Below, piece after piece: positions 19,084 to 19,791 of a stretch of DNA of 32,000 bases; position 1 is the stretch's first letter; each line of letters starts with the position of its first letter. Under the pieces are notes generated by a model. It was not told where the DNA came from, did no database searches, and was given only the letters and a program-made list of their open reading frames with translations. Where the stretch lies: positions 240,001 to 272,000 of the forward strand of contig JBGQBI010000004.1 of NCBI GenBank assembly GCA_041494705.1, in the 5' to 3' direction. A program made the position numbers and the translations under genes. This DNA is from Candidatus Methanoperedens sp. (GTDB lineage Archaea; Halobacteriota; Methanosarcinia; Methanosarcinales; Methanoperedenaceae).

Positions 19084-19743
19084 ATGGTTCATATGCAAAA
19101 GGACACGCGCCTCATCCTGGCTCTTGATGTTACAGATAAGAATGCAGCAGCCGTGATATCAAAAGAAACAGCAGAGCATGTGGATGCCATCAAGATAGGC
19201 TATCCGCTCGTGCTTGGTGCGGGACTTGCGATAATTGGAAGGATTTGTGAATTTGCTCCAGTAATTGCGGATTTTAAGGTTGCCGATATCCCAAATACCA
19301 ATAGGCTGATATGCAGCCAGGCATTTGAAGTGGGTGCAAGCGCGGTAATCGTTCACGGTTTTACAGGGCGGGACAGTCTTCTTGAATGCGTAAAAACAGC
19401 AAGCGAATACGATGGGGAGATTTTTGTTGTCACGGAAATGAGCCATCCCGGAGCTATTGAGTTCATGGCGCCAAAGGCTCTGGAACTTGCCTCACTTGCG
19501 GTTGAATGCAAAGCCCAGGGCGTAGTAGCCCCGGCAACGCGCCCCGAAAGAGTGGAAAAAATACGCGGCGTAGTTGGCGGGCTGACTATCATCTCACCCG
19601 GCGTAGGCACGCAGGGAGGAAGTGCGGCAGATGCGATAAGAGCGGGCGCGGATTATGTTATTGTTGGACGGACTATTTATAATTCAAAGACACCCGGAAA
19701 AGAGGCTGAAAGGATAGCGAAAGAGATAGAAAAGTGCCGATGA
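19084..19743 (+). CDS. pyrF: Orotidine 5'-phosphate decarboxylase PyrF
   Basis: The motifs are [17 protein letters not shown] and VIVGRTIY. Alternative starts are TTG 19072 and ATG 19093. Confidence 0.9.
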
Positions 19744-19791
19744 TGAAACAAAACATGGCTGAAAAATGATGAGCCCTATGAGTACTGAGGC
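19736..19791 (+). ncRNA. C/D box sRNA (2'-O-methylation guide)
   Basis: Boxes and guides in order:
- C box AUGAUGA, 19740-19746
- 12-nt guide AACAAAACAUGG
- D' box CUGA, 19759-19762
- C' box AUGAUGA, 19766-19772
- 12-nt guide GCCCUAUGAGUA
- D box CUGA, 19785-19788

A terminal 3-bp stem forms between GCC (19736-38) and GGC (19789-91). The spacing is exactly canonical. Confidence 0.85.

Follow-up and report, generated by a model that had tools for sequence, protein, structure and literature searches.

We examined a stretch of 32,000 nucleotides (nt) from the genome of Candidatus Methanoperedens sp., a methane-oxidising archaeon (assembly GCA_041494705.1, contig JBGQBI010000004.1, positions 240,001 to 272,000 of the forward strand; this whole stretch is called the window below) and found that the end of its pyrF gene overlaps a box C/D small RNA (sRNA) that is the Candidatus Methanoperedens ortholog of sR-tMet of Haloferax and of sR41, alias sR49, of Pyrococcus. 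We place at about 0.85 the probability of the explanation as a whole, namely that this ortholog guides 2'-O-methylation of C34 (Cm34), the first anticodon base, in the precursor of elongator methionine transfer RNA (pre-tRNA-Met) and matures from the pyrF transcript. The evidence that carries it is the anatomy of the sRNA, its membership in a known family, a target site in the same genome, the genes for the three proteins of the ribonucleoprotein (RNP), and a conserved linkage to pyrF.

An earlier reading of the locus from its letters alone (the sequence-only reading) had described a canonical C/D box sRNA with four perfect boxes, two 12-nt guides, a 3-nt linker and a stem of 3 base pairs (bp), and had placed the pyrF stop codon inside the C box. 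Both the sequence layout (Table 1) and the match to the Rfam family RF01126 agree with that description, and the open reading frame (ORF) at 19072-19743 confirms the position of the stop codon at 19741-19743. All four boxes are indeed perfect. The terminal C and D boxes fit the RUGAUGA and CUGA of the C/D class and are accompanied by a stem that closes the molecule and that can be extended to 4 bp through U19735:A19792, and the internal D' and C' boxes come with the spacers of about 12 nt that mark the C/D class, here 12 nt each. The stem also shows compensatory changes among 103 distinct orthologs, in which the second pair is CG, UA or UG, the fourth is UA, CG, GC or UG, and the fifth is GC, CG, UA or AU.

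Table 1. Coordinates of the sRNA, its parts and two genes of the window (position 1 is the first letter of the window)
Feature	Position	Strand	Basis or remark
Box C/D sRNA, sR-tMet / sR41 ortholog	19736-19791	+	RF01126 match and orthologs; mature ends inferred
5' half of terminal stem, GCC	19736-19738	+	also within the last two pyrF sense codons, UGC CGA
Spacer base G, single, unpaired	19739	+	sequence
C box, AUGAUGA	19740-19746	+	holds the pyrF stop (19741-19743) and a second in-frame UGA (19744-19746)
D' spacer, AACAAAACAUGG, 12 nt	19747-19758	+	sequence
D' box, CUGA	19759-19762	+	sequence
D'-C' linker, AAA, 3 nt	19763-19765	+	sequence
C' box, AUGAUGA	19766-19772	+	sequence
D guide, GCCCUAUGAGUA, 12 nt	19773-19784	+	antisense to pre-tRNA-Met A31-A37 and intron bases 1-4
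D box, CUGA	19785-19788	+	sequence
3' half of terminal stem, GGC	19789-19791	+	sequence, stem covariation
pyrF (orotidine 5'-phosphate decarboxylase), coding sequence including UGA stop	19072-19743	+	PF00215 (OMPdecase), E 2e-43; NCBIfam equivalog NF010386, 295 bits (cut-off 208)
tRNA-Ser(UGA)	24766-24850	-	Rfam tRNA model, 56.9 bits

The window holds the full four-box pattern a single time, and 100 dinucleotide-preserving shuffles of it never reproduced the pattern; a relaxed four-box scan of the 2.06-Mb genome returned this site and one poor candidate, with 2, 0 and 0 hits in three genome shuffles. These counts bear on whether box-like motifs might have arisen at the end of pyrF without any RNA product. 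UGA-rich motifs are common near stop codons, which would suit such an accident. Against it stand the window shuffles, an Rfam score above the curated cut-off, the co-varying terminal stem, and orthologs whose guide is identical, present in 39 of 41 related genomes and in 51 of the 121 genomes that we sampled across the phylum. The boxes are moreover kept in lineages where they lie 13-171 nt behind pyrF and are non-coding; this conservation outside coding sequence effectively refutes a chance origin, which we regard as extremely unlikely.

The assignment to a family is equally direct. The sRNA scores 58.2 bits against the sR41 covariance model RF01126, above its curated gathering score of 54 (E 5e-11), and 33.2 bits against the haloarchaeal sR-tMet model RF02163, which is below the cut-off of 50 because the haloarchaeal RNAs carry a long (~20-nt) internal insert between D' and C'. 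The Rfam alignment shows conservation in the D guide, GAGCCCUAUGAG, and none in the D' spacer. Over GAGCCCUAUGAGU the D guide does not differ from the sR-tMet consensus, and it aligns to the haloarchaeal model too. It also matches the 17 RNAs with this guide that were listed by Grosjean et al. 2008 (PMC2584109, Additional file 5) from haloarchaea, Methanosaeta, Methanococcoides, three Methanosarcina species, Pyrococcus, Thermococcus, Methanothermobacter and Methanocaldococcus, so that candidates from Methanosarcina, Methanococcoides and Methanosaeta are among the matches. Guided Cm34 of elongator tRNA-Met in H. volcanii is credited to Joardar 2011 in PMC4033218 and PMC6601510. Because family, guide and target have thus been published (Grosjean 2008, Joardar 2011), the sRNA is a member of a described family. 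The class proposed by the sequence-only reading therefore stands, with the further point that the RNA is an ortholog of sR-tMet / sR41, already catalogued in the Methanosarcinales, and so is not new: the RNA family, the target, the intron-spanning duplex and, in general, the overlap of a stop codon with a C box are already published, and the Methanoperedens copy is a new member. The nearest relatives of the PyrF protein of the window come from Candidatus Methanoperedens (best 93% identical) and then from the Methanosarcinales.

Comparison with individual relatives brings out what is shared and what differs. Haloferax volcanii sR-tMet (RF02163) has the D guide core GCCCUAUGAGU in common with the window sRNA, and the target as well, which is C34 of the intron-containing elongator pre-tRNA-Met; in both, pairing reaches into the intron, so that methylation would have to precede splicing. 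The haloarchaeal RNA differs in its degenerate boxes (UGACGA, CCGA), in the structured nature of its D'-C' insert of ~20 nt, and in its location, which is not beside pyrF in the four haloarchaeal genomes examined. Pyrococcus sR41 (sR49 in Grosjean 2008 / Clouet-d'Orval 2001) has the same compact build of ~55 nt, the same D guide and likewise a variable D' spacer, but its C' box is UGAAGA and its last guide bases are GAGCG, versus GAGUA here. The Methanosarcinales candidates of PMC2584109 (M. thermophila, M. burtonii, M. barkeri, M. mazei and M. acetivorans) are direct orthologs in which box layout and guide are identical, and the published M. thermophila entry, 1557381-1557438, coincides with our match at G122:C1:1557383-1557435. 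These candidates differ in lying 13-171 nt behind pyrF (Methanosarcinaceae) or unlinked to it (Methanothrix), with no overlap of the stop codon. Human SNORD97 and SCARNA97 (Vitali and Kiss 2019, PMC6601510) are likewise box C/D guides for Cm34 of elongator tRNA-Met(CAT), but they are eukaryotic and intron-encoded, they cooperate as two guides, and their tRNA forms no intron-spanning duplex; we note the likeness without claiming common descent.

To identify targets we worked with the complements of the two 12-mers. The sequence-only reading had given these complements and the methylated bases (a G for D', a C for D) correctly, and had proposed to look for exact 12-mers in the ribosomal RNA (rRNA) and tRNAs. 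For the D guide that check finds no match: its exact complement occurs in the genome only antisense to the sRNA itself, and the true target is an unspliced pre-tRNA, with pairing that runs 3-4 nt into the intron. A search that allowed one mismatch and wobble pairs recovered GACUCAUAGGGU inside G000:C5:97850-97959 (G000 being the genome that holds the window), which Rfam calls as a tRNA at 58.5 bits and which has the anticodon CAU and, at the canonical 37/38 position, a 36-nt intron starting with GGGU. The target site is its exon-intron junction, GACUCAUA|GGGU. Across A31-A37 and intron bases 1-4 the D guide makes 10 contiguous Watson-Crick pairs and one terminal G:U pair, and C34 faces guide base 5, counted upstream from the D box; the C/D class is likewise characterised by a guide that makes at least about 10 bp with a stable RNA and has its target at position 5. 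Among 16S rRNA, 23S rRNA and 48 tRNAs, this pre-tRNA-Met is the best match of the D guide.

The duplex is also the one expected of the family. In sR-tMet / sR41 the D guide pairs with CUCAUA|ggg of the intron-containing elongator pre-tRNA-Met, as GCCCUAUGAG does here, and the layout in the window is the same as that of PMC2584109 Additional file 5, where the duplex with intron-containing tRNA-Met is drawn as CACU-Cm-AUA|ggg. No change is seen in the core CCCUAUGAGU:ACUCAUAGGG among the 19 genomes of Methanoperedens that yielded both partners, a CCYUAUGAG guide core is kept in the other families sampled, and the intron-bearing tRNA-Met is present in 38 of 41 relatives at 75-98% identity, the intron included. 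The other CAU tRNAs of the genome, the initiator at C2:394000-394074 and C4:3936-4013, both lack GGG after A37, and could form only about 7 contiguous pairs with the D guide. Taken from these pairings, the D guide would direct Cm34 on unspliced elongator pre-tRNA-Met(CAU).

Several further matches to the D guide were set aside. Near-perfect 12-mer matches at C2:385884, C4:195479 and C1:130516 have no tRNA-like context and are not among the called tRNAs. Within the window itself, UACUCAUAGGGU at 25666-25677 on the plus strand (C4:265666) complements all 12 bases of the D guide, with one G:U pair, again without tRNA-like context; it stands directly before a GGUGAU...AUG start region. This match is probably a coincidence, with ~1.7 such matches in the genome expected by chance (an estimate) and 3 seen.

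The tRNA-Met intron itself deserves a few remarks. Its 36-nt form is conserved across the order. In Methanoperedens it holds UGAAGA or UGAUGA followed by CUGA, which resemble a C box and a D box, and the CUGA also lies in the bulge-helix-bulge helix. The program aragorn misses this tRNA in its default mode and, in intron mode, reports it as tRNA-Ser(aga) and places the intron two bases off.

In contrast to the D guide, the D' spacer yielded no plausible target in 16S rRNA, 23S rRNA or the 48 tRNAs. Its best match there is a non-contiguous one of 8 Watson-Crick pairs and 1 G:U pair out of 12, which 95 of 100 shuffled guides equalled or bettered. Within the genus the spacer measures 9-12 nt and its sequence is free to vary. 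Because the D' 12-mer has no target and is unconserved, the sRNA is effectively a single guide, and of the two guides claimed by the sequence-only reading it is the D guide, with its pre-tRNA-Met target, that holds, whereas the D' guide does not. The contrary proposal is that of a true dual guide, whose D' spacer would also guide methylation of an rRNA, a tRNA or another RNA at the G that faces the fifth base of the spacer. It can point to perfect D' and C' boxes, to a spacer of exactly 12 nt in this genome, and to one exact complement elsewhere, on the minus strand at C3:292878. That site lies outside the called tRNA and rRNA genes, however, and is at about chance level (~0.25 expected in 4.1 million positions); in congeners the spacer differs in sequence and shortens to 9-10 nt. 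We also considered docking of the D' arm on the tRNA-Met intron, and saw no sign of it: in the 19 genomes there is no co-evolution between the spacer and pre-tRNA-Met, the mean duplex energy being -4.3 kcal/mol for a genome's own pair and -4.4 kcal/mol for cross pairs. We therefore hold a second guide to be very unlikely; the D' spacer probably guides nothing and serves to hold the C'/D' kink-loop in position.

The protein partners of the C/D class are encoded in the same genome: fibrillarin (PF01269, 277.9 bits), Nop5 (PF01798, 155.9 bits) and L7Ae (PF01248, 97.2 bits). The fibrillarin gene (G000:C5:138294-138935) and the Nop5 gene (G000:C3:118788-119222) are on different contigs; in archaea nop5 and fibrillarin usually form one operon. 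A search of the whole genome with the general Pyrococcus C/D model RF00095 gave a good score only at this locus and found no further C/D sRNA family. Because that search and the relaxed four-box scan each recover essentially only this locus, canonical C/D sRNAs seem to be very scarce in the genome. The tRNA-Trp gene at G000:C2:427378-427593 has an unusually long intron, of 142 nt, with GUGAUGA and CUGA boxes, and presumably represents the intronic C/D guide that commonly directs Cm34 and Um39.

We next turn to the linkage with pyrF, for which we took advantage of 80 Methanosarcinales loci retrieved through pyrF and of the flanks of the sRNA retrieved from the phylum sample. In about 72 of the 80 loci the sRNA is on the same strand and directly behind pyrF, and 3 remaining loci end at a contig edge. 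The pyrF UGA makes up bases 2-4 of AUGAUGA in 17 of 17 Methanoperedens-type loci. In a sister group (L036, L038 and L039) the frame is shifted, and pyrF crosses the C box and runs on until a UAG that closes the D' spacer, an overlap of 17 nt; in family f13 (L138) the overlap is deeper still, at 26 nt, with pyrF ending at the UGA of the C' box. In these four loci, then, the coding sequence of pyrF takes in 17-26 nt of the sRNA. ANME-2 and the Methanosarcinaceae have a gap of 13-171 nt between the two genes, and keep the boxes there. The NGC-CGA-UGA-UGA overlap recurs in further families, namely f8 (6/6), f15 (10/10 linked), f18 (2/5), f20, f27, f28 and f29; f15 is presumably Methanocella, and f18 presumably includes Methanoregula boonei. 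The sRNA and pyrF are unlinked in Methanothrix (f7, 4/4), in the Archaeoglobaceae-like f9, in f23 and in haloarchaeal families.

Of 100 loci, no more than 5-6 keep the other neighbours of pyrF (nadA, an ORF of 48 amino acids, or fprA), and the pairing of pyrF with the sRNA is far more stable than local synteny. As for published arrangements, the locus belongs to the class of 3'-overlapping C/D genes of Tripp 2017 (as reviewed in PMC7994747), if the absence of a promoter is judged from high-GC relatives, and shares with that class an upstream stop codon within the C box. The review reports that ~25% of the C/D genes of six model archaea carry an upstream stop codon, nearly half of these in the C box, and describes the contexts as variable; here, by contrast, one specific pair of gene and sRNA is kept across at least nine archaeal families. 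In the literature that we searched, we found no earlier account of how deep and how faithful the pyrF linkage is, and the linkage goes unmentioned in the available portion of the text of Grosjean et al. 2008 (PMC2584109).

How the sRNA might be made follows from this arrangement. We propose that it would have no promoter of its own and would arise at the 3' end of pyrF transcripts, in which the stop codon is the first UGA of the C box, and that assembly of the RNP would protect it while nucleases trim the flanks. Assembled with L7Ae, Nop5 and fibrillarin, it would pair through its D guide with the unspliced pre-tRNA-Met across the exon-intron junction, the D' and C' boxes would serve the symmetry of the RNP, and the D' spacer would be without a target. 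Tripp 2017, as reviewed in PMC7994747, reports that maturation of archaeal C/D sRNAs needs only the box motifs, with dispensable flanks and ends set by RNP assembly, and that most archaeal C/D sRNAs have no promoters of their own. In the high-GC families with the overlap, the 110 nt before the C box hold no AT-rich, TATA-like octamer. This makes an internal promoter of the TATA-dependent kind implausible in those families, where transcription running on from pyrF would be the only evident source of the sRNA. The comparative evidence, from linkage and from the high-GC relatives, thus favours processing from, or co-transcription with, the 3' end of pyrF, as had been suggested from the sequence. 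We think co-transcription probable, and pyrF is likely the host transcript.

Several points weigh against the explanation as a whole. That the sRNA is expressed, has the mature ends of Table 1, is processed from the pyrF transcript and guides Cm34 we infer from the DNA sequence. On the side of the target, 11 of 100 shuffled guides reach the count of the D guide on the rRNAs and tRNAs. This is unexceptional, and the assignment of the target therefore rests on contiguity, on position 34, on conservation and on the published homologs. Guide position 12, a G, makes only a G:U pair with intron base 4, and across species this position (G or A) does not co-vary with that base (U or A). On the side of biogenesis, the TATA-like sequence TTTATAAT (19676-19683) precedes the C box by 57-64 nt, so that an internal promoter may exist in the low-GC Methanoperedens itself, and several Methanosarcina loci in which the sRNA is 60-170 nt behind pyrF have TATA-like motifs ~20-30 nt upstream of it.

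The latter two points also favour an alternative in which identity and target stay the same and the sRNA is transcribed from its own promoter within the 3' coding end of pyrF, as do similar AT-rich stretches at the same place in the Methanocella-like loci L135-L137. Yet TTTATAAT consists of codons for G-R-x-I-Y-N, a motif conserved in PyrF, and appears in degenerate form, as ATTTACGGC or ATATACGGA, in other Methanoperedens species. It also lies ~25-30 nt further upstream than a TATA box would for a start at the 5' end of the sRNA. The AT-rich stretch is, as described, absent from the high-GC families that keep the overlap, and the reported rarity of dedicated promoters among archaeal C/D sRNAs (PMC7994747) argues in the same direction. 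An internal promoter is thus unlikely here, and maturation from the pyrF transcript is the route that we prefer. In Methanosarcina (L052, L059, L060, L080-L086 and L090), the TATA-like sequences CTTATAAT and TATATT occur ~20-30 nt before the terminal stem, which suggests that the sRNA may have acquired its own promoter in that genus.

The overlap could also be read as regulatory, with L7Ae or the C/D RNP on a kink-turn at the stop codon controlling pyrF termination or mRNA stability, or coupling pyrimidine synthesis to the maturation of tRNA-Met. The NGC-CGA-UGA-UGA overlap persists in nine families while all other neighbours of pyrF change, the linkage outlasts frame changes after which pyrF stops within the D' spacer or the C' box, and L7Ae represses translation through kink-turns in archaeal mRNAs (PMC5539422). 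On the other hand, Methanosarcinaceae and ANME-2 part the two genes by 13-171 nt, Methanothrix, Archaeoglobaceae-like and haloarchaeal genomes have them fully unlinked yet keep the sRNA, and no functional link from pyrF to tRNA-Met is known. Because several lineages separate or unlink the genes and nevertheless keep the sRNA, we rate a regulatory meaning low and consider it improbable. Unlikely, too, is the bolder idea that pyrF and sR-tMet form an ancient, selectively maintained composite gene that predates the split of Methanosarcinales, Methanocellales and Methanomicrobiales, in which the pyrF mRNA would be the obligate precursor of the guide and the RNP assembled on the kink-turn at the stop codon would act back on the synthesis of PyrF or on mRNA decay. 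If true, this would be a conserved transcript with the dual function of protein-coding mRNA and guide RNA, unlike the fluid contexts usual for C/D sRNAs.

Among the neighbouring features, a cysteine-rich ORF of 48 amino acids (MPSEKCNFCSGEKC...) lies at 19849-19995 on the plus strand. Five Methanoperedens loci carry it with 73-98% identity, one of them on the opposite strand; being conserved and once inverted, it behaves as a real small gene, and it has no match in Pfam or NCBIfam. There is no oligo-T tract directly after the sRNA, and the transcript may therefore continue into this ORF. We excluded an ORF of 132 amino acids on the minus strand (19684-20082) that covers the sRNA: it is spurious, likewise has no Pfam or NCBIfam match, and in relatives its matches break up into antisense shadows of pyrF, the sRNA and the 48-amino-acid gene.

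For Methanoperedens, these results place an unannotated functional RNA at the end of pyrF. They also explain the retention of the tRNA-Met intron, in that the intron supplies 3-4 of the pairs that make the guide specific for one of three CAU tRNAs, and they show that a standard tool miscalls this intron-bearing tRNA. The Cm34 guide of elongator tRNA-Met appears to belong to a very small number of canonical C/D RNAs that these mesophilic archaea have kept. The pairing of pyrF with the sRNA offers a natural system for how the 3' end of an mRNA becomes a guide RNP, and one with members that can be cultivated in Methanocella, whose species share the overlap, and a genetically tractable one in Methanosarcina; the same system could tell neutral, hitch-hiking overlaps from regulatory ones.

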